Of a stretch of DNA of 25,190 nucleotides, positions 2,438-21,516 are shown in pieces. Location of the stretch: the IMG/VR virus record IMGVR_UViG_3300048606_000071, positions 1 through 25,190 of that record. The stretch is one strand, 5' to 3'. The stretch comes from a virus. Lineage: Duplodnaviria; Caudoviricetes. The notes beneath the pieces were generated by a model. That model saw nothing but the letters and a program-made list of their open reading frames with translations. It ran no database searches and was not told the DNA's origin. A program made the translations under genes and the position numbers. Position 1 is the stretch's first letter. Each line of letters starts with the position of its first letter.

Positions 2438-2564
2438 GAAAAAAGGCACTCCCACCAAACCAATACAACCGCCAAAGTTGAAAGGAAGGAAAGAACGCCT
2501 AATGATTTCTATTGAGTAATACACTTTGAATGCACAAAGCTAATTAACTTTATTAGCATCGTTG
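2438..2564 (-). ncRNA. Putative replication-control antisense RNA (ctRNA/RNAI-like), about 125 nt
   Basis: Has its own promoter (2571-2600). Stem AGGCGUUCUU/GGGAGUGCCU (G-U pairs work only on this strand), apical CAAC-UUUGGCG-GUUG loop and a terminal U6 tract. Fully complementary to the repA leader. Confidence 0.65.
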
Positions 2565-2570
2565 ATTTTT

Positions 2571-2600
2571 ATTTTATCATGTGGGAGTGCCTTTTGTCTA
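2571..2600 (-). promoter_or_regulatory. Antisense promoter in the repA leader
   Basis: Minus strand TAGACA-N18-TAAAAT with an extended -10 (TG-A-TAAAAT). Confidence 0.6.
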
Positions 2601-2630
2601 GAATCTAAAAGACAAAGGGAGAACTTAAAA

Positions 2631-3521
2631 ATGTCCGAATATTACACGATCCACGAAGAGTATGGCACACGATTTTATCAAGTGCCCAAAGTATTTTTTA
2701 CGAATGATCTTTACAAAAAAGGATTAACCGATACTGAAAAAATAGCTTTTGGTATGTTGAAAGACCGATTTGAATTGTCAAAAAAAAATAAATGGTTTGA
2801 TGAAAAAGGAAGAATTTATTTTATTTTTAGCATTGAAAATCTTATGGATATTTTTGATTGTTCTAAGACCACTGCTATTAAAATAAAAAAATCACTGATT
2901 GATTTAAACTTACTCGAAGCAAAGCGAAGGGGTAGGGGTCTTACTGATATTCTTTATTTAAAAAAACCACAAGTGACCGATAAGGACGTTTACAAGATCA
3001 TTGACCAAGAAGAAAAATTGCCGATGAAAGATAAAGAAAAAGAAGCCAAAACCCTTGATACACTTGAGAAGTCCAGAAAGTGGACTTCTGGAAGTCCAGA
3101 AAATGAACCTCTAGAAGTCCAGAAAATGTACCCTAATGATACTGACTTTAGAGAGACTGACAATAACAAAACTGAGAAAAACCTTAACCCTAACCCTAAT
3201 GAAGAATTAATTAAATTAATAGGCGAACTAGCCTTGCCTTCACTTTTAAAAGATAGGGTTAAGATTATGATTAAAAATAATATTATTTCTTTATCGCTTG
3301 AACAAATATTCCAACTCGAAGAAGCATATGCCCATCAAGTTAAAAAAGATTACATAAGACCCGAATGCGATTTCGAATACAGTGGCGCAATAAATGATTC
3401 TGAGTTTACAAGTTCAATGGTCAAAATGTTAAGCGAAGTTAAAAACATTAATAACATGCGAGGACTAGTCCAGAAGTGGGTTAAAGAAGCATTTGAATAC
3501 AAATTAACACAATTAAGTTAA
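2631..3521 (+). CDS. repA: RepA_N-family replication initiator
   Basis: Start moved to ATG 2631 (RBS AAAGGGAG). Motifs RFYQVPKVFF, MLKDRFELSKKNKWFDEKGRIYFIFS and central NDTDFRETDNNKTE; repeats inside the gene as in RepA_N origins. Confidence 0.88.
   Translation: MSEYYTIHEEYGTRFYQVPKVFFTNDLYKKGLTDTEKIAFGMLKDRFELSKKNKWFDEKGRIYFIFSIENLMDIFDCSKTTAIKIKKSLIDLNLLEAKRRGRGLTDILYLKKPQVTDKDVYKIIDQEEKLPMKDKEKEAKTLDTLEKSRKWTSGSPENEPLEVQKMYPNDTDFRETDNNKTEKNLNPNPNEELIKLIGELALPSLLKDRVKIMIKNNIISLSLEQIFQLEEAYAHQVKKDYIRPECDFEYSGAINDSEFTSSMVKMLSEVKNINNMRGLVQKWVKEAFEYKLTQLS
3067..3136 (+). repeat. Three 23-bp iterons inside repA (putative origin)
   Basis: GAAGTCCAGAAAGTGGACTTCTG (3068), GAAGTCCAGAAAATGAACCTCTA (3091), GAAGTCCAGAAAATGTACCCTAA (3114). 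The first also forms the inverted repeat AGAAGTCCA-N5-TGGACTTCT. Confidence 0.85.
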
Positions 3522-5661: not shown

Positions 5662-6360
5662 CTATTTATCTTTCTCAATAATGTAGGAATCATACCCAAG
5701 TTTTTTTAAGTTTGCTACTTGCTCTACTGCATTTTGTTTTTCTTGAAATGTCCCAGTAATCACTTGATACAAAACATTATCTTTTGTAGGAGTGGTCGCC
5801 AGCTCTTTTTCTTTTAATCCAAAAAACTTGGCAAGTCCTCTGGCATGCCCCTTTGCTAACATATTTAAAAATGCATCGTTCTTTAATTTGCTTGCATCTG
5901 TTGAATTATTAATAAAAAGATTTTCAGTCAATATTGCGCTCATATTACTTTCTCGAAGCACATGAAAGTTAGCTTGCTTCTTCCCACGATCAATAATGTT
6001 CCCACCTTTGATCTGATTGAAAATTTCATTGTGCATGACATTCTGTAAGCTTTTTGTATCTGCCCCAGTGATAGGGTGAATAAAGGTTTCAAAGCCAGTA
6101 GCAGAAGCAGTAGCACTATTTACATGAATGCTTACAAATACATCTGCTTTCCATGCATTTGCTTTGTCGGTCCTGGCATCAAGAGAAATTGTTTTGTCGC
6201 TATCTCGACTTAACATGATTTCGGCATTGCTATAATTTCTCACTAGATAATCTCTTGTCTTTAAAACTAACTTCAAAGTAATATTTGCTTCGTGTATACC
6301 GTTTCCTATTGCCCCAGAATCAGAACCGCCATGACCCGCATCTAGAAAGATTTTAACCAT
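5662..6360 (-). CDS. Endolysin: N-acetylmuramoyl-L-alanine amidase (Amidase_3) plus SPOR-type domain, CwlC-like
   Basis: IFLDAGHGGSDSGA, HEANITL, FVSIHVNS, AILTENLFINN; C-terminal LYQVITGTFQEKQNA...LKKLGYDSYI. Confidence 0.93.
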   Translation of the reverse strand: MVKIFLDAGHGGSDSGAIGNGIHEANITLKLVLKTRDYLVRNYSNAEIMLSRDSDKTISLDARTDKANAWKADVFVSIHVNSATASATGFETFIHPITGADTKSLQNVMHNEIFNQIKGGNIIDRGKKQANFHVLRESNMSAILTENLFINNSTDASKLKNDAFLNMLAKGHARGLAKFFGLKEKELATTPTKDNVLYQVITGTFQEKQNAVEQVANLKKLGYDSYIIEKDK

Positions 6361-6379
6361 TGTCTAGCCCCCTTAAAGC

Positions 6380-6688
6380 TTAATATTGCTTTTTATTTTG
6401 TTGTGCTTGTGGATCTGATTTATCTGGTTGCTCTTTTATGGTCGTGCGAAGCCCAGAATAAAGTCCACTTGCCATAAGCCCATACATGATGCCAGTCATT
6501 ATTGCGCCAGAAAAATCATTAAAGTCATGATTCGCAACGACTCCAATAATGATTCCTATGCCAATACTCACCAAAGGCATGAACTTATTGCTTATAAAGC
6601 CAGTCATCTTGACCGCTTGAACTAAGGCGACAATAATGGGCACTGCTACGATTGCGCCGGTCTGAATTACTGTAAGATCGATATTCAT
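6380..6688 (-). CDS. Holin with three predicted TM segments
   Basis: IIVALVQAVK...KFMPLVSIGIGIIIG...GIMYGLMASGLYSG; directly upstream of the endolysin. Confidence 0.85.
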   Translation of the reverse strand: MNIDLTVIQTGAIVAVPIIVALVQAVKMTGFISNKFMPLVSIGIGIIIGVVANHDFNDFSGAIMTGIMYGLMASGLYSGLRTTIKEQPDKSDPQAQQNKKQY

Positions 6689-6909
6689 TTTTTCTTTTCC
6701 TCCAATTCTTTTTCAAGTAGGATTTTCCACACTCGAATCAAAACGTGCATTTCTTCTTGGATTGCATCTAGCTTTGTATTGACTAGTTCATGCATCCTCT
6801 TTTCTCGTTCTTTGCTTGTCTTTATAAAATAAATAAATAATGCAGAAAAAAGAAGCATAAATGGCGTTTCTGTCTTGATGAAATAAGACAATTCATTAAG
6901 TAACTCCAT
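6685..6909 (-). CDS. BhlA/UviB-like holin-type membrane protein
   Basis: TETPFMLLFSALFIYFIKTSKEREKRM followed by a coiled coil; RBS AAGGAGG. Confidence 0.7.
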   Translation of the reverse strand: MELLNELSYFIKTETPFMLLFSALFIYFIKTSKEREKRMHELVNTKLDAIQEEMHVLIRVWKILLEKELEEKKK

Positions 6910-6921
6910 TTTGCTTCCTCC

Positions 6922-7164
6922 TTATTTTTCACTTTCTTTTATCTGACTAATCACATCTTGCTTTGCATTGCGTATTTCTAATTGCAATTGCTCATAAATT
7001 AATTTGTTTTGTGTTTCAATATTGTTCATTTCTCTTTGTAGATTTTGTTGGTTCTTTTCGCTTGCTTGGTTGCTAATCCACATAAAGACAAATGATAAAA
7101 TAATACCTTCTACTAGGACACTGGCGACAAACTCAAGTATAGTTAAAATAATAGCTTGGTTCAT
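6922..7164 (-). CDS. Membrane protein, N-terminal TM plus coiled coil (80 aa)
   Basis: ORF track; ATGA overlap with the upstream micro-ORF. Confidence 0.7.
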   Translation of the reverse strand: MNQAIILTILEFVASVLVEGIILSFVFMWISNQASEKNQQNLQREMNNIETQNKLIYEQLQLEIRNAKQDVISQIKESEK

Positions 7165-7268
7165 TTTTTAGGTTTCCAGAAAATGAAATAGCCCATTAAA
7201 CCTACCCCTAATAAAAGACCAATAAAAAAAGTAATGTCCATGTTCACACGACCTTTTATTTTTCTCAT
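7161..7268 (-). CDS. Single-TM micro-protein (35 aa) MRKIKGRVNMDITFFIGLLLGVGLMGYFIFWKPKK
   Basis: Not in the track. RBS AGGAG, TAATG overlap upstream, ATGA overlap downstream. Confidence 0.6.
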   Translation of the reverse strand: MRKIKGRVNMDITFFIGLLLGVGLMGYFIFWKPKK

Positions 7269-7336
7269 TATTCTCTGCTCCTATAAATAAAATAGACAAG
7301 ACAAAATGCACTGACTACCAATAAGAGTAGACTCAT
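7268..7336 (-). CDS. Single-TM micro-protein (22 aa) MSLLLLVVSAFCLVYFIYRSRE
   Basis: Not in the track. ATGA overlap with the upstream ORF, TAATG overlap with the downstream ORF. Confidence 0.5.
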   Translation of the reverse strand: MSLLLLVVSAFCLVYFIYRSRE

Positions 7337-7527
7337 TTGCCCATCTGCCGATTTTCAGATTGACGTATTTCGTCCTTGACTTCTTCGATTTCTAGATAAA
7401 GTTCTTTACTCTGATTAGCAAGCATCCTCTGGGTGTTGTTCTTAGATAGGGCAACATTGAAGATCATTATGCTAATGAAAATTATCACATTAAACGAATA
7501 TACTTGGTCAAATAACCACTGTTTCAA
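7333..7527 (-). CDS. Membrane protein, TM plus coiled coil (64 aa)
   Basis: TTG start with a GGGGGT RBS, 1 nt after the previous stop. Confidence 0.65.
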   Translation of the reverse strand: MKQWLFDQVYSFNVIIFISIMIFNVALSKNNTQRMLANQSKELYLEIEEVKDEIRQSENRQMGK

Positions 7528-7528
7528 A

Positions 7529-7636
7529 TTATACCCCCCATAGTATATAGATTAATTCTATAAAAGCATCACAAAAGTAAGCAAATGCAGTGGCAATAAA
7601 TATACATAACAATAATTCTGAGCAATACTGATTCAT
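7529..7636 (-). CDS. Hydrophobic micro-protein (35 aa) MNQYCSELLLCIFIATAFAYFCDAFIELIYILWGV
   Basis: Not in the track. Starts 1 nt after the upstream stop and exactly fills the gap. Confidence 0.5.
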   Translation of the reverse strand: MNQYCSELLLCIFIATAFAYFCDAFIELIYILWGV

Positions 7637-7637
7637 A

Positions 7638-8237
7638 TTAGACAACCATGTCCCATTTAATCGCTTCTATTTCTTCAATCGTTGTGGCTGCTTCGACAAG
7701 TGGCAATAATTCATCACGATATTTGCTTATCATGCCTTGCTTATGAAGAATAATGGTATTGGTTATTTCATTCATTAATTCTTTGTTAATGACAATGCGC
7801 TCATATGCGCCACTTGGATTGTAAACTGTCCATAATAATTCTGCGACCAATCCTTGATTCAAGACTTGCGCTCCATCATTGAAGTTCATTTGTGCTTCTG
7901 TATCATAACTAAAATGATACATGGTCCCGTTTATTTCATGTTCAAAACCGCCTAAAATAGCTTCATTGCATGCTTCGTCTAGTTCAGACCGTTTCGATTC
8001 TTTTGCCATTTCTAATAAAAGTAAGGGGTCTTTTCCTTCTTTCCATTGCCTTGTTTCACGATCATAAATAGGTTCGTACAAACCTTCTCCCCAAGACTCA
8101 TTTACAAAAGTTCGTCCTTCATCTATTGCTTGTTGCAATCTTTTTTGATCCCAGAAGTAATTTTCGATAACATGTCCAGTTTCGTCTATCTCCCAGTATT
8201 CATAAAATCTCGGTTCTTCTTCTTCATACTTACCCAT
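7638..8237 (-). CDS. DUF4376-like tail fibre-associated protein
   Basis: AKESKRSELDEACNEAILGGF...FSYDTEAQMNF...VEAATTIEEIEAIKW; follows the fibre gene. Confidence 0.7.
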   Translation of the reverse strand: MGKYEEEEPRFYEYWEIDETGHVIENYFWDQKRLQQAIDEGRTFVNESWGEGLYEPIYDRETRQWKEGKDPLLLLEMAKESKRSELDEACNEAILGGFEHEINGTMYHFSYDTEAQMNFNDGAQVLNQGLVAELLWTVYNPSGAYERIVINKELMNEITNTIILHKQGMISKYRDELLPLVEAATTIEEIEAIKWDMVV

Positions 8238-8248
8238 GCCTTCACTCC

Positions 8249-9076
8249 TTAGTTAACTGCTAAGAATGTAATATTACTTAACGACACATAATCTGCCGAT
8301 CCAGTAACATGCTCTATTCTTCCATCTGGGTGAACATCTACTCTTGAAATAGCTACACCCGCAAAGCAAGCAAACATTCTTTTTCCTTCGGGTCTGCATC
8401 CTACTGGAAGAGTAGCAATGACTGTTTTAATTGTTCCTTTAACAAGTCCTTTAAGTGTTACAAAGCCATCTGCACTTTTTGTATATCCATTGCCTTCATA
8501 AGTCGCAGTATTATAATTCGTCCATCCATTAATCAGTGACAATGATCCATTGATTTTAGTGGCAATTACATTATTAATTCCACCGCCAATAGTTATATTT
8601 CCACCAGAAGGGGGCGTTAACGTGTAGGCCGCTGTTGAAGAAGTCCCAATAGGTATACTGAGCCTTCTAGTACCATCGTAGTTATAGACTACCCAACTCG
8701 ACCCCGCAGAAGGTGTTGAATCTGAAGGAAACATAATATCTCCGTAATCATCCATCATGATTGAAGCAGAATTTTGAAAGCGCAAACCTTTGGAAGAATT
8801 CACTTTCACTTCTCCATCTACCACAAGATCACTAGAAATATGGGCATCTGGGGCAAAACTCAAACCACCTTGCATGGTATCGCCAGTTTTATCGATGGCA
8901 TTTGCTAGTGCCGATTCGATCTTATTTAATTTATCTGCGGTTATCGGTGTTCCAGAAGAGATAATATTTCCTTCAGCTGGCACAAGTGTTACTGAACCAT
9001 CAACATTGTCTATCAAAGTAAATGTTAAAGGTCTTTCTACGGTTCTATCTGCCCAGTTCGTTGGTACATATGCCAT
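8249..9076 (-). CDS. Tail fibre / receptor-binding protein
   Basis: N-terminal MAYVPTNW...GTPITADKLNKIE, KTGDTMQG motif, and C-terminal head LINGW...VTLKGLVKG...IATLPVGCRP...VSLSNITF. Confidence 0.8.
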   Translation of the reverse strand: MAYVPTNWADRTVERPLTFTLIDNVDGSVTLVPAEGNIISSGTPITADKLNKIESALANAIDKTGDTMQGGLSFAPDAHISSDLVVDGEVKVNSSKGLRFQNSASIMMDDYGDIMFPSDSTPSAGSSWVVYNYDGTRRLSIPIGTSSTAAYTLTPPSGGNITIGGGINNVIATKINGSLSLINGWTNYNTATYEGNGYTKSADGFVTLKGLVKGTIKTVIATLPVGCRPEGKRMFACFAGVAISRVDVHPDGRIEHVTGSADYVSLSNITFLAVN

Positions 9077-11290
9077 TTAAACGCCACCTCTACTTTCAGT
9101 ATTTCCACTTAAAAAGCCTTGGTAATCATAAACTTGTTTTATAATCCTCGTTTGCTTGTCTGCCCTGAAGCTATCTTCAACTAAAATTAAATCAGAACAT
9201 TCGAGAATAGGGTTTTGTCGCCATGAAGCACTATAATAAGCATTATAATTACTCTCTCTGAAATACCAATCGGCAATACTATCTGCATGCGCTTCTGTTT
9301 TAATAAGTGGATTATTTAATGAGAAAGAAGCCCCATTGTTTGAAAGAAGCATAGGATTGGTATATATTTTTTCGATAGGCTCTACTGTTTCACTGTCTGC
9401 CCCATCTGGATAAATCATAATAATTAATTCATAAATTGATTTTTCTAGTTTAATTTCTGGCGCATCATACATTTCTTCAAAACCGATATGTCTCATGCCA
9501 CCTTCAGTGTTATTGACGATATAAGTGCCCGAACTAGGATAGCCAAAAATGTTGGGTTGTGACACTGGATAAGTAATATAATTTGTTAATTCATCCATGA
9601 TCGAAAAAGGTCTTATCACGATGCGCCCATATCGATCTTGATAAACTGCACACATGGCTGCTATTCCGATATGTTGCAAAGCAGTACGAGAATCAATGCG
9701 TTCTGGGAATGTATTCACTGTTATATCTTGCAAAGAATCATCTATTAATTGATCTTCTAAAGGCACATCAGCAAGAGTCAATACAGTTTGAGCCATCGAA
9801 AATAAATTCGTGTGTACTGAAGCAGTAAAAGATGTTTCAGAAAGCAAAGCAAAATAATCATTACAAGTTAATGTAATGACTTTGCTTGTCACATCATTGC
9901 GCCATTCTGATAAAAAGAAGACACCCATAGGCGACCATTCCACACTTCCATTGTCTAAAACTAACCCCAGTTCTACATCGATTCTGGGCTTGGTAGAAAT
10001 AATCTGAAACATGTTTTGAAAATTTAAAATGTCAAAATCCCCACTCGCATTGTCCATTGTTAAAATAAGTTCGTTTGAAGGTAGTGTTTCATTTAAAGTT
10101 GACATTTCTTCTAGTAGGGTAAAACTCATCACTGTATCATCGTCATACAATCTTATATTCGTTAAGGCTACGTCCAATTGAACTTCTACATAATCTGTAT
10201 AAAGAGTAACCTTTGCACTAGTGGCATCTGCTTTTGGTTGTGCATAGGCAACAAAATGGAGAAAACCATCATCGTCCAAGCGAACTTCGTTCTTCGATAT
10301 TTCTAGCATTTCATTTGAAGCACTTGTATGGGAGACTGTTTCTTCATACTGTCCTTCTGTTGCATTCCAGACTGTAATTGATGCTTTTGGAGTTGAAATA
10401 TCTTTTGGAAAAATCTTAACACCGTCTACGGTTTCTGGGTATGTGCCTTGTATGGCAGAATCTCTTATGGTGTACCATGTTTGTCCGTCTTGAGAAATTT
10501 CGATTTTCCCATCATAAAATGTTCTTCCATCTAAATAATAGTGAACGACTTGAACGCTCTCTATATCTGAACGAACTGACCCTAAATCGATATACACCCA
10601 TACTGGCGCACCGCCCCATGCATAACCGTATGTATTTGATTGCCCATCTGTAATGTTTACACCATTAGTTAGTGACCCATTTGTGAATACTGGAAGTCCA
10701 GTGGTTAAATTGACACCACCCGCCATGACGTTAATTTGATTCCAATAATTTGTTGTGTTTGCAGTGCTCCCATTGATCGTATCTCTTACATATCGGAAAG
10801 GCATAAAAAAGTTAGGTTGTGGGTTTTCTCCCCACCCTTTCCACCGAACAATAGAATTCTTTATAATTTCTTGAGCAAATGCCACTTTATCTTGCATAAG
10901 GGTCTTACCCACCCAAAGCCCTTCGCCAATTTCTCTTTGTAAAGCTTCAATGACGTTGAAAGAAAAAAGCATTTGGGGGTATTGTCCCACTGTCCCAGTT
11001 TGAGCAAAGAAATTTGCATCATCATCCATCGCTAAACGATCATAAGATACTTGAGAACCAGTTCTATCCCATGTTGCAGAAGGTACGGTAGTACGATCTG
11101 CAATTAAATATCCCATCAAATGTGGGTTTTCTTTTACGCTATCTAAGATTTTGCCTTTAAAGTCCATAAAAATCTGAGAATCCATGCTTGGCTGCTCTTT
11201 GAATGCATCCATCGTAATAACGACTCTAGACTTGAATTGTCTCTCTTGGGCATATACTTTACTTTTAAAATCATTGCTAGAAGGTAGCAC
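9077..11290 (-). CDS. Tail tip/baseplate hub (Tal-position) protein with inserted beta-sandwich domains
   Basis: Position after the tape measure and small distal-tail gene; hub-like C-terminal half (PSNELILTMDN, EWSPMGVFFL, YQDRYGRIVI, NNPLI, WRQNPILE); internal discoidin-like segment. Confidence 0.72.
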   Translation of the reverse strand: MLPSSNDFKSKVYAQERQFKSRVVITMDAFKEQPSMDSQIFMDFKGKILDSVKENPHLMGYLIADRTTVPSATWDRTGSQVSYDRLAMDDDANFFAQTGTVGQYPQMLFSFNVIEALQREIGEGLWVGKTLMQDKVAFAQEIIKNSIVRWKGWGENPQPNFFMPFRYVRDTINGSTANTTNYWNQINVMAGGVNLTTGLPVFTNGSLTNGVNITDGQSNTYGYAWGGAPVWVYIDLGSVRSDIESVQVVHYYLDGRTFYDGKIEISQDGQTWYTIRDSAIQGTYPETVDGVKIFPKDISTPKASITVWNATEGQYEETVSHTSASNEMLEISKNEVRLDDDGFLHFVAYAQPKADATSAKVTLYTDYVEVQLDVALTNIRLYDDDTVMSFTLLEEMSTLNETLPSNELILTMDNASGDFDILNFQNMFQIISTKPRIDVELGLVLDNGSVEWSPMGVFFLSEWRNDVTSKVITLTCNDYFALLSETSFTASVHTNLFSMAQTVLTLADVPLEDQLIDDSLQDITVNTFPERIDSRTALQHIGIAAMCAVYQDRYGRIVIRPFSIMDELTNYITYPVSQPNIFGYPSSGTYIVNNTEGGMRHIGFEEMYDAPEIKLEKSIYELIIMIYPDGADSETVEPIEKIYTNPMLLSNNGASFSLNNPLIKTEAHADSIADWYFRESNYNAYYSASWRQNPILECSDLILVEDSFRADKQTRIIKQVYDYQGFLSGNTESRGGV

Positions 11291-14704: not shown

Positions 14705-15103
14705 TTATGGCGTTGGTGCAGTTAATGTAGGCTCACCGCTTACTTTCAAAGTGCCTTCAAAGCTAATCAAGTCTTCTAATTCGGCACTAGTAGAGAAACC
14801 TACTACCACTGCATCGAATGTCCAAGTTGATCCATTCGGGAATGTAATCACATATGCCCCAGTGCTACCCGCTTGGAAGTCATCTAATAACGGTGAATGA
14901 GAAGTATAATCAAAATAGCCACTAATAGAAACTTCCCCAGCATCACGAAAAGAAGACGTAAACTCACGATAGCCCCCCTCAGATGACAAGGTGGTTACAT
15001 CGATAGTATCAGCAGATAGGTCTAGTCCACTAATACTTGTTAATCCTGCGATGGCTGCTCCATCGGTCTTTTTAATAGTCGTACCCATAGCAACAGTAGG
15101 CAT
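14705..15103 (-). CDS. Major tail tube protein (132 aa) from an internal in-frame start
   Basis: AGAAGGAGG-AAATTTT-ATG at 15103; LSADTIDVTTLSSEGGYREF...DAGEVSISG...ITFPNG..WTFDAVV.GF...TLKVSGEP is a siphophage tube signature. Confidence 0.88.
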   Translation of the reverse strand: MPTVAMGTTIKKTDGAAIAGLTSISGLDLSADTIDVTTLSSEGGYREFTSSFRDAGEVSISGYFDYTSHSPLLDDFQAGSTGAYVITFPNGSTWTFDAVVVGFSTSAELEDLISFEGTLKVSGEPTLTAPTP

Positions 15104-16186
15104 AAAATTTCCTCCTTCTAAATTATCCAGATATAAGTTTGGTTCGCTTGCTTGTGCTTCTGCTAATGTTGGATAGACATGTAAGAGAATAGGAGTAGCA
15201 GTGCCTACATCTTGATACATGTCTTGACTTTCTACGACAATAGAAATGTCTGTCCCATCAGTGTAAGCAGTAATGTCAATTTCTTTTCTTACTTCCGTTC
15301 CCAGTGCCCAAGCTTTCCAAGCACCATTTATAAAAACATTCGCACCGATATAGTCAGTAATCAAAGGTCTGGTGAATGTCACTTCAATTTTATTGTCTTC
15401 GATCATTCGTGCTACAATATTTGTTGGCACTTTTGGTGGCATTAATCTGTCTAAGGAGTCAATTCGGTTCAAGTCGATCTGATTTGTTCCATGCGAAACG
15501 CCCCACTCACTTGCAGTGGCGGGCACATCGTATTGCCAATTACTGAAACTTGTCCATCCACCCCAGTTAGGCACAATATATTCTGGTGCAGTTTGAGCCA
15601 CTTTGTATTGGTCATACTCTGCTAACCATAGTGGCATATTACTCAGTTCGGCTATTTGCTCAGTAGTCATGGCTATTCCATCAGTAGGATAAGCCCCTTC
15701 TTGCATAAACCATCGACCCGCATATAAACCAAGTTTTCTTTTTGTAACTGAATTAAATCGATCCCTAAAACGCTTTACCCAAGCTAGAATCTTTGTGCCA
15801 TCCATTCCATAAAACATAGGCTTTTGTGGTACATCTGCGCCCCAAGATTCAACGTCCACATAAGGGACTAAATCGCCATAATCGCCCACACCATAAGCTT
15901 GTTGTAACACTTCGATAAATTGGTCACACTGGGCATCTGCTTCTACACCGCCATCTACCGCTACATCAGTGCTTGGAGTAGCAAAGTAGTATGCGCCAGT
16001 GGGCACACCTCTTGAACGAAACAATTGCGCCCTTGCAATAAATTCTGTATCTGGGGCAGTATGGTTTGATCCATAGGCTCTTAAAATAATGGCTGGCGAT
16101 TTGGAAATTAATAATTCTACGTCCACAATCGTCTGTAACGAAGACAAGTCTGGGAAGATAATATTGGATTGTCCTCTAGTTTGCAC
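14705..16186 (-). CDS. GH25 muramidase-FN3-like-tail tube fusion protein (493 aa)
   Basis: GTG 16186 with RBS AGGGAGG. GH25 motifs PDLSSLQ, GAYYFA, DVE, LWLAEY, WQY, IDLN; then PPKVPTNIVA...IEVTF; no stop before the tube domain. Confidence 0.82.
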   Translation of the reverse strand: MQTRGQSNIIFPDLSSLQTIVDVELLISKSPAIILRAYGSNHTAPDTEFIARAQLFRSRGVPTGAYYFATPSTDVAVDGGVEADAQCDQFIEVLQQAYGVGDYGDLVPYVDVESWGADVPQKPMFYGMDGTKILAWVKRFRDRFNSVTKRKLGLYAGRWFMQEGAYPTDGIAMTTEQIAELSNMPLWLAEYDQYKVAQTAPEYIVPNWGGWTSFSNWQYDVPATASEWGVSHGTNQIDLNRIDSLDRLMPPKVPTNIVARMIEDNKIEVTFTRPLITDYIGANVFINGAWKAWALGTEVRKEIDITAYTDGTDISIVVESQDMYQDVGTATPILLHVYPTLAEAQASEPNLYLDNLEGGNFMPTVAMGTTIKKTDGAAIAGLTSISGLDLSADTIDVTTLSSEGGYREFTSSFRDAGEVSISGYFDYTSHSPLLDDFQAGSTGAYVITFPNGSTWTFDAVVVGFSTSAELEDLISFEGTLKVSGEPTLTAPTP

Positions 16187-20538: not shown

Positions 20539-21516
20539 TTAGCAAAAAGTTCGTTCAATGTAGTTCACAATGGCTCTAAATCGATTCGAATAATCTAACC
20601 GAATCATGCCATGCCCTTCTGAAGAAGCTTCATATCCTAATGGAATTAAATGCTTTACTAGGGTGGCAAAAATTTCGCACTCGGTTAACTCTCTTTTGAA
20701 AAGATTCTCATTAATATTGATTAAAAGTGCCAGTGCCCCAGATACATGGGGAGTCGCCATCGATGTTCCAGACAAAGTGGCATACTTGCCTTCTAAATAA
20801 GTTGATAAAATGTTGACCCCTGGCGCAATCACATCAACTTGCAAATTATTGTTTGAAAAATCGGCTAGTTTATTTTTTTCATCACTGGCTGCTACTTCGA
20901 TTACTTCGTTATAAAAGCCAGGGAAGCCGAATTCATGGCTTTTTTCATCGTTATCGCCTTCATTTCCAGAAGCAACGACCACTGCTATTTCTGCAAGAGT
21001 CGCATCTTTAATGGCTTTTTTTAAGTTCGGATCGTCAAAAGAGCCACCCAAAGACATGTTCATGATGCGTACACGTTCACCATTTTCACCTCTCCAAGTG
21101 GTTGCATAATGAATGCCATCAATAATGCTTTGATAAGAGCCACTTCCATTGCCATCTAGCACTTTAACCACTAAAAGACTCGCTTCTGGGGCTACTCCTA
21201 CGACTCCGATTCCTTGAGCACTCGCACAAATTGTTCCAGAAACATGAGTGCCATGCCCATTTCTATCGTTAAAATCGTCTGGCGACCCTTCATCACTGAA
21301 GTTTTTGCCACCTATGATGCGGTCTTTTAGGTCTGGGTGTGTAATATCGCATCCAGTATCTAACACTGCGACTACAACGCCCTTTCCTTTTTCGCCTTTC
21401 TCCCAGACTGAAGGAGAATCAATTCTTTCAATCCCATAGGGCACTTGGTCTACTGAATTTTGAGTGCTTATGACTTTAAAGGGTATTAAGTGGGTCAAGT
21501 TCTGCATTTCCGTCAT
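20539..21516 (-). CDS. Subtilisin-family (S8) serine protease, intracellular ISP type
   Basis: Catalytic triad VLDTG / HGTHVSG / GTSMATPHV, oxyanion motif ASGNEG, N-terminal LIPF motif, no signal peptide; RBS GAGGGGG. Confidence 0.93.
   Translation of the reverse strand: MTEMQNLTHLIPFKVISTQNSVDQVPYGIERIDSPSVWEKGEKGKGVVVAVLDTGCDITHPDLKDRIIGGKNFSDEGSPDDFNDRNGHGTHVSGTICASAQGIGVVGVAPEASLLVVKVLDGNGSGSYQSIIDGIHYATTWRGENGERVRIMNMSLGGSFDDPNLKKAIKDATLAEIAVVVASGNEGDNDEKSHEFGFPGFYNEVIEVAASDEKNKLADFSNNNLQVDVIAPGVNILSTYLEGKYATLSGTSMATPHVSGALALLININENLFKRELTECEIFATLVKHLIPLGYEASSEGHGMIRLDYSNRFRAIVNYIERTFC

Follow-up and report, generated by a model that had tools for sequence, protein, structure and literature searches.

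The run of seven small membrane-protein genes that precedes the amidase in a virus record of 25,190 bases, taken as a whole (the window), is best described as a patchwork, a reading that is given a probability of about 0.9. It combines an ordinary lysis cassette, two orphan micro-ORFs, and a conserved pair of genes, m64–m80, which is often led by an ORF of a further type, m35a. New herein is the pair: two conserved membrane proteins that are portable, varied in position, and independent of the lysis cassette, with a function that is predicted at most. Membrane genes that line up next to a holin do not necessarily constitute a single system. Nothing on the two families appears in the published literature searched, though unnamed proteins are hard to find by words.

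On the minus strand, the gene order of the window is terminase, portal, S8 subtilase, prohead protease, capsid, tail, membrane-gene run, and amidase; past the amidase lie a repressor-like gene, a RepA_N gene, and a DNA methylase gene. The host is likely a monoderm Bacillaceae species, since the amidase is nearest to enzymes of Geobacillus, Caldibacillus, and Bacillus phages (45–49%), the subtilase is nearest to Bacillus phage proteases, and Bacillus sp. ISL-75 encodes an m64 homolog (WP_215013953.1) within a contig of 41,947 bp. Most of the window's sequence is present in two sequencing runs of a single soil metagenome sample, possibly its source. A nucleotide comparison of 5662–8237 with GenBank phages gave no relative except a 57-base patch in the amidase gene.

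The run lies on the minus strand and begins 1 nt from the gene of a tail-fiber-associated protein (DUF4376; 7638–8237). Its first ORF, m35a (7529–7636), encodes a hydrophobic protein of 35 aa, or of 38 aa if a TTG start at 7645 is used. The core of the pair, m64 (7333–7527), has a TTG start and encodes 64 aa; the second half, m80 (6922–7164), encodes 80 aa. Between these two lie the hydrophobic orphan ORFs m22 (7268–7336, 22 aa) and m35b (7161–7268, 35 aa), the latter with AGGAG as its ribosome site and 7241 as a possible alternative start. A preliminary description of this DNA had reported five tiled hydrophobic ORFs, and a reading of the minus strand bears this out: from the upstream flank to m80, the successive junctions are a 1-nt gap, a second 1-nt gap, ATGA, TAATG, and ATGA. 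A 12-nt gap separates m80 from the BhlA-like gene. Each of the five ORFs has one hydrophobic stretch, as had also been claimed, with a 17-mer mean Kyte-Doolittle value of 2.09–2.65; the BhlA-like protein peaks at 1.57 on the same scale. In dinucleotide shuffles of 6922–7636, coupled chains of five ORFs of at least 20 aa each arose in two of 1000 and a coupled chain of even two hydrophobic ORFs in none of 1000, figures that flatter the run because the region was picked post hoc. Good ribosome sites precede m64 and m35b; those of m35a, m22, and m80 are weak, and these three ORFs would depend on coupling. An internal promoter or a type I toxin-antitoxin arrangement was rejected, as 13 promoter-like sites compare with 13.3 expected and no terminator lies inside 5662–9200.

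The cassette at the end of the run is of a familiar kind. Its holin (6380–6688, minus strand, 102 aa) is of the Hol118 type and a member of PF06946 above the curated cut-off (35.6 bits vs 22.4; PHROG holin, E 5.8e-22). Hol118 proteins have three membrane segments. The holin of the window shows two strong segments (hydropathy 2.47 and 2.46) and a weak third (1.22), the one trait that stands out in an otherwise ordinary protein. The amidase gene (5662–6360, minus strand) encodes an Amidase_3 endolysin (PF01520, E 6.2e-46) with a SPOR-like C terminus. The BhlA-like gene (6685–6909, minus strand) encodes a putative single-pass holin partner that scores 21.4 bits against PF10960, for which the cut-off is 22.6. 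This protein is 49% identical to the copy in the related genome G003 (33 bits, above the PF10960 cut-off) and 32% identical to the copy in G004, which also passes the cut-off; it fits the BhlA layout with its 74 aa, its N-terminal segment at residues 13–29, and its ATGA overlap with the holin gene. The 74-aa and 102-aa genes form a single-pass plus multi-pass pair before an amidase, as in two-protein holins of the BhlA/BhlB type. The order of BhlA-like gene, holin, and amidase given in the preliminary description stands, and its label of a holin with three membrane segments is plausible, the third being weak.

Whole records were read for five relatives (G001–G005), of which G001 and G005 are incomplete. 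G003 (40,024 bp) and G004 (40,067 bp, 97% complete) keep BhlA, holin, and amidase together, homologous to the three genes of the window, with m64–m80 lying ~24 kb away in G003 and ~16 kb away in G004. The complete genome G002 (42,825 bp) has the order m64–m80–holin–amidase and no match to PF10960, PF10779, or a local BhlA alignment. Genes of the secreted type for SafA-LysM/YkwD-CAP and LysM-NlpC/P60 proteins recur in the relatives (L013:4562–5188, L017:4528–5743, L051:3677–4288), and in L013 and L017 such genes sit between holin and amidase. A spanin pair (Rz/Rz1) was considered for the run and rejected. Spanins consist of an N-in/C-out inner spanin and an outer-membrane lipoprotein and belong to diderm hosts; the host herein is likely monoderm, no lipobox is seen by eye in the five ORFs, and the charge bias favors C-in.

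Both members of the pair belong to unnamed conserved families. For m64, 211 protein clusters were found, the best 120 of the 211 at 72–91% identity, and clustering at 50% leaves 59 representatives, among them a few fragments or chance coiled coils. For m80, a single sequence retrieves 50 clusters and a profile 357; its closest homologs (P0002, P0003) lie on contigs of 42,783 bp and 28,666 bp. Neither protein matches Pfam or NCBIfam or belongs to a curated family, and tblastn of both against 50,697 phage records gave no match; nor did m64 against plasmids, or m80 and the 199-aa flank protein in single-sequence scans of viral contigs. Pfam, NCBIfam, and the set of GenBank phages overlook these two families, which have hundreds of members in a large group of uncultured soil Bacillaceae phages. 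In the fetched loci, pN is smaller than pS in 528 of 528 pairs of m64 (medians 0.15 vs 0.75) and 435 of 435 pairs of m80 (medians 0.31 vs 0.76), the pairs not being independent of one another. Judged by these substitution ratios, both genes are under strong purifying selection, and since synonymous sites are saturated, the conservation reflects old selection and not recent transfer. In a strain from another study, five of the differences listed fall inside m64, all at third positions. The earlier contention that the ORFs are not spurious is thereby upheld for m64 and m80.

A single N-terminal membrane helix with an extended helical tail is predicted for both proteins. m64 is modeled as one helix (pLDDT 89.9), of which the first part would cross the membrane and the remainder would form an amphipathic charged tail; in m80, a hydrophobic N-terminal helix with two conserved glutamates is predicted to precede a coiled-coil–like tail. 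In the alignments, E19, G20, and F27 of m80 occur in 49 of 49 rows and E11 in 48 of 49, and m64 has polar residues in or beside the membrane segment at Q8 (40 of 44 rows) and N13 (43 of 44 rows). Both tails show a hydrophobic periodicity of ~100 degrees and, by hand count, consist to ~39% (m64) and ~31% (m80) of charged residues; the numbers of K/R before and after the helix are 1 and 3 in m64 and 0 and 1 in m80. Several apparent likenesses were discarded: hhalign gives probabilities of 6% and 11% for m64 and m80 as paralogs, structure matches to the RNase Y N terminus and a pseudopilin are generic long-helix matches, PDB matches are to designed or generic coiled coils with no meaningful solved relative, and the names of JGI homologs (Eha subunit H, adenine methylase, YhcB) contradict each other and lack Pfam support. 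Atlas feature scores of m64 and m80 to BhlA clusters are 0.85 and 0.83, which is lead level, all Atlas hits being below 0.9. A second, diverged m64 copy without two of the tail residues is present in several phages (L045:10999–11175, L041:189–368, L029:1662–1805); that of L029 appears frameshifted. The record G001 contains two m64 copies.

The position of the pair in related phages was taken from scans of 44 loci on 42 contigs, in which L018 and L019 repeat L002 and L014, and L004–L012 with L015, as well as L026 with L027, are near-copies. Both genes are found in 35 of the 42 contigs and are directly adjacent in 34 of these (gap −4 or 0); in the remaining one, L002, terminase genes split them. 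Within the DNA fetched, five contigs have m64 alone and two have m80 alone. The pair stands between large terminase and portal in 14 of 42 contigs and after the subtilase and/or before a BppU-fiber gene in another 14; m80 directly precedes the holin, with no BhlA between, in seven, and m64 follows recU in four. One contig each shows the pair between portal and protease, split, or in an unclear context. The full set of five ORFs is found in none of the 42. In a tree of m80 (30 proteins, 88 columns, few well-supported branches), the eight holin-region copies need three changes and a single clade of them is rejected (AU p = 0.006), so that m80 arrived at the lysis region more than once. The m80 of the window is nearer to copies from the subtilase and terminase layouts, and its block therefore likely entered independently, ahead of an existing BhlA cassette.

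The three micro-ORFs differ in what can be said for their conservation, which the preliminary description had offered as a check. For m35a, weak positional relatives exist. A coupled hydrophobic ORF lies upstream of m64 in 32 of the 40 contigs with m64, with a length of 28–38 aa in 16, 57–59 aa in 14, and other lengths in 2. A profile built from 12 of the 16 shorter ORFs, chosen by eye (L024, L035, L039, and L042 omitted), scores m35a at 10.7 bits, a value reached by 16 of 2000 shuffles, the best control being 7.6; on this score, m35a is probably a diverged member of the 28–38 aa family. The database protein P0171 reads as an in-frame join of an m35a-type ORF and m64, which may be a gene-calling effect. 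For m22 and m35b, which are too short for large database searches, no relative was found among 5853 small ORFs of the fetched loci, and no similar ORF lies between m64 and m80 in any of the 35 contigs with both genes. They are not an assembly error, since contigs from two other studies cover all of m35b and its junction with m22 without gaps (7063–7294 with 0 differences; 7110–7293 with 14 differences over 184 bases). Of the two, m22 is taken as a lineage-specific insert between m64 and m80. Translation is predicted for both, as probable for m35b and as somewhat favored for m22. A match of m35b to a family of membrane ORFs behind the S8 gene (5.8 bits, reached by 20 of 1000 shuffles) was set aside as too weak.

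Signals in the relatives point to when the pair is expressed. Ahead of the m35a–m64–m80 block, contigs of the subtilase layout carry a hairpin, a promoter-like sequence that is conserved, and a TGACA-N6-TGACA repeat, which is exact in 9 of 14 contigs. The same repeat lies ~190 nt before terS in L008 and G003, with a variant in L002, and four of four RinA-like activators tested from these phages match TIGR01636, below its cut-off. Direct repeats upstream of terS are described as binding sites of RinA/ArpU-type activators, in a source with no TGACA motif in its main text (PMC3753634). The terS-type repeat and the RinA-like proteins suggest that the block opens the late operon in the subtilase layout, the binding itself being a prediction. 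In the recU layout, m64 lies upstream of the RinA-like activator. The stretch with repeat, promoter-like sequence, and terminator-like hairpin (L001:3583–3726 and matches in L023, L025, L030, L032, L033, L037, L039, and L044), which directly precedes the first gene of the likely late operon, is a possible attenuator or leader RNA. After the late activator, there is also an ORF of 44–49 aa that resembles a signal peptide with a short tail, followed by a membrane ORF of 27–31 aa (L021:1658–1887, L029:3701–3942, L047:5325–5638); the former is a possible signaling peptide.

For the function of m64–m80, a membrane-anchored holin partner that tunes lysis timing is the leading guess, a tentative one held at somewhat under even odds. 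This part of the lysis-linked role proposed earlier is kept for the pair; a single multicomponent complex is not supported. Both proteins would insert N-out/C-in and pair through polar residues of their membrane helices (Q8 and N13 in m64, E11 and E19 in m80) and also through their amphipathic tails, and the resulting heteromer would modulate the holin. It is common for polar residues in membrane segments to promote the packing of helices or the sensing of protons. With its buried glutamates, m80 could sense a loss of proton-motive force; with middle-to-late synthesis, m64 and m80 would accumulate before or together with the holin, and m80 could replace BhlA where the latter is absent. A link to lysis is favored by the contigs in which m80 adjoins the holin without an intervening BhlA, a position reached repeatedly, and by an architecture as in BhlA and LysF1b. 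In addition, no BhlA match occurs in G002, where the pair is at the holin, and BhlA is present in G003 and G004, where the pair is elsewhere, an argument based on one complete genome. If the two proteins are lysis regulators, the Gram-positive two-holin model would gain a second, portable layer, and a clean question would arise, namely whether m80 replaces BhlA.

Known lysis systems offer partial likenesses. Two cooperating holin proteins are described for SPP1 and PBSX (PMC6316719), and two-protein holins of Bacillus phages include HolP30/HolP33 of Deep-Purple (PMC9327680). Compared with BhlA/BhlB (SPbeta), XhlA/XhlB (PBSX), gp24.1/gp26 (SPP1), and HolP30/HolP33, m64 and m80 share the BhlA layout. 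However, they have no sequence match to BhlA or XhlA and come in addition to BhlA in three genomes; they are also far better conserved than the holin, and in most cases their genes lie apart from the cassette. LysF1b is described as a single-pass lysis regulator of mycobacteriophages (PMC13056207), and regulators encoded far from the endolysin are reported with LysA2b of D29 (10.64898/2026.08.27.747656) and HolB/HolV (PMC9327680). The pair resembles LysF1b and LysA2b in the N-terminal membrane helix, the charged helical tail, the ATGA coupling, and possibly an N-out/C-in topology (PMC13056207; 10.64898/2026.08.27.747656), and in a gene that can lie far from the endolysin (10.64898/2026.08.27.747656). 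LysF1b is given as a protein of 124 aa with a 22-aa outer part, a tail that is ~50% charged, and a two-pass partner (PMC13056207), whereas m64 and m80 are two single-pass proteins proposed to pair with each other and are likened to it by architecture only. Cassettes of Gordonia phages likewise stack several unrelated small membrane genes beside the endolysin, with up to four membrane genes in those described (PMC9671378), compared with seven in the window, where the extra genes are portable or orphan.

Other observations weigh against the tuning of lysis by m64–m80. In 35 of the 42 contigs, many of them fragments or near-copies, m80 is not seen before the holin, and the pair is no simple BhlA substitute, since the window, G003, and G004 carry BhlA and the pair. 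No row of m64 or m80 matches BhlA (PF10960) or XhlA (PF10779) at E ≤ 0.01 (0 of 44 and 0 of 49), the identities of the two proteins are weakly correlated (rho 0.25, reached in 50 of 2000 permutations), and the genes are not always together, as L002 and the five contigs with m64 but no adjoining m80 demonstrate. In the same contigs, m64 is mostly 72–89% identical, compared with 41–52% for the holin and 48–59% for the amidase. A fixed host target accounts for such conservation better than a phage holin does.

The first alternative is that m64 and m80 are membrane-anchored coiled coils of host takeover and that their proximity to the holin is incidental; the odds are clearly against it, less so than against any other alternative. 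The targets would be a conserved membrane complex of Bacillaceae at the division septum, the sporulation septum, or the engulfment machinery, and the effect would be to prevent division or sporulation of the infected cell, or to allow progeny to exit from a sporulating cell. It draws on the strong conservation of m64 in phages whose head and tail modules are unrelated, synonymous sites being saturated; on the independence of the pair from the lysis cassette; and on the four contigs in which m64 lies after recU and ahead of the gene for the RinA-like activator, an arrangement that implies expression earlier than the late phase. The same phages also carry a SafA-LysM/YkwD protein (above NCBIfam cut-offs), a LysM-NlpC/P60 protein, and an S8 subtilase. 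Against these points, no host homolog was found: the genome collection gave one match, on the phage-like contig L044 (DATIJN010000025.1) within a Saccharimonadales bin, where it is probably mis-binned. Matches to SpoIIIAF (4 of 49 rows) and ATP synthase b (2 of 44) have E >0.001 and look like generic helix-plus-coil matches, and this reading does not explain why m80 has come to lie just ahead of the holin more than once. If a division or sporulation complex were hit, the near-invariant m64 tail would point to a conserved target in spore formers. In a narrower and improbable form, a portable m64–m80 complex would act with the SafA/YkwD-like, LysM-NlpC/P60, and subtilase proteins to breach or block the sporulation septum or the forespore membranes, and would thereby let a widespread group of uncultured soil Bacillaceae phages with unrelated virion modules complete infection in cells on their way to dormancy.

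A membrane anchor or chaperone of virion assembly, or a minor virion component for DNA entry, is a poor prospect. All but 5 of the 42 contexts lie in or at the edge of the morphogenesis operon (14 before BppU/fiber genes, 7 after tail-fiber genes, 16 among terminase, portal, and protease). As a rule, however, assembly factors stay with their module, and this pair is found with terminases, portals, and tail tubes of unrelated types. About equally poor a prospect is lysis inhibition upon sensing a second infection, or superinfection exclusion, the latter being the weakest of the three functions offered in the preliminary description. Small membrane proteins with moron-like mobility would suit it, as would weak matches between 23 of 49 m80 rows and a PHROG moron family labeled "membrane protein"; however, no observed copy lies beside a repressor or integrase or in a lysogeny or immunity region, the block follows the likely late-promoter repeat in most contigs of the subtilase layout, and the predicted topology exposes almost nothing outside the cell with which to sense a phage. 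A single complex of all seven proteins, dedicated to lysis or release, is the strongest form of what had been proposed; it is very improbable and largely refuted as a conserved unit: translational coupling is unbroken in the window and the m22–m35b–m80 junction is gapless in the contigs of two other studies, but the five-ORF set recurs in no related contig, m22 and m35b have no relatives found, and the pair is mostly away from the holin, 16–24 kb from the cassette in G003 and G004.

Further features of these phages concern genes outside the run. The S8 subtilase gene, which lies between portal and prohead protease in the window (20539–21516, minus strand), precedes the m64–m80 block in other relatives (L001:2402–3340 and others) and is another gene that shifts between layouts. 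The RepA_N initiator gene of the window (2562–3521, plus strand) and a tyrosine recombinase with ArdC in G003 (L050:17850–18431; L051:805–1638) suggest, by their predicted products, plasmid-like prophages; G001 has a large serine recombinase instead. In the window (14705–16186, minus strand), the tail tube protein carries at its N terminus an in-frame fusion to a GH25 lysozyme-like module of ~360 aa; of the 31 GenBank phage records that match, none extends over the entire fusion. A strong ribosome site precedes an internal ATG at 15103 in the fusion gene. In G004 (L053:10031–11734, minus strand), a GH25 module (53% over 351 aa) is joined to an unrelated type of tail tube.
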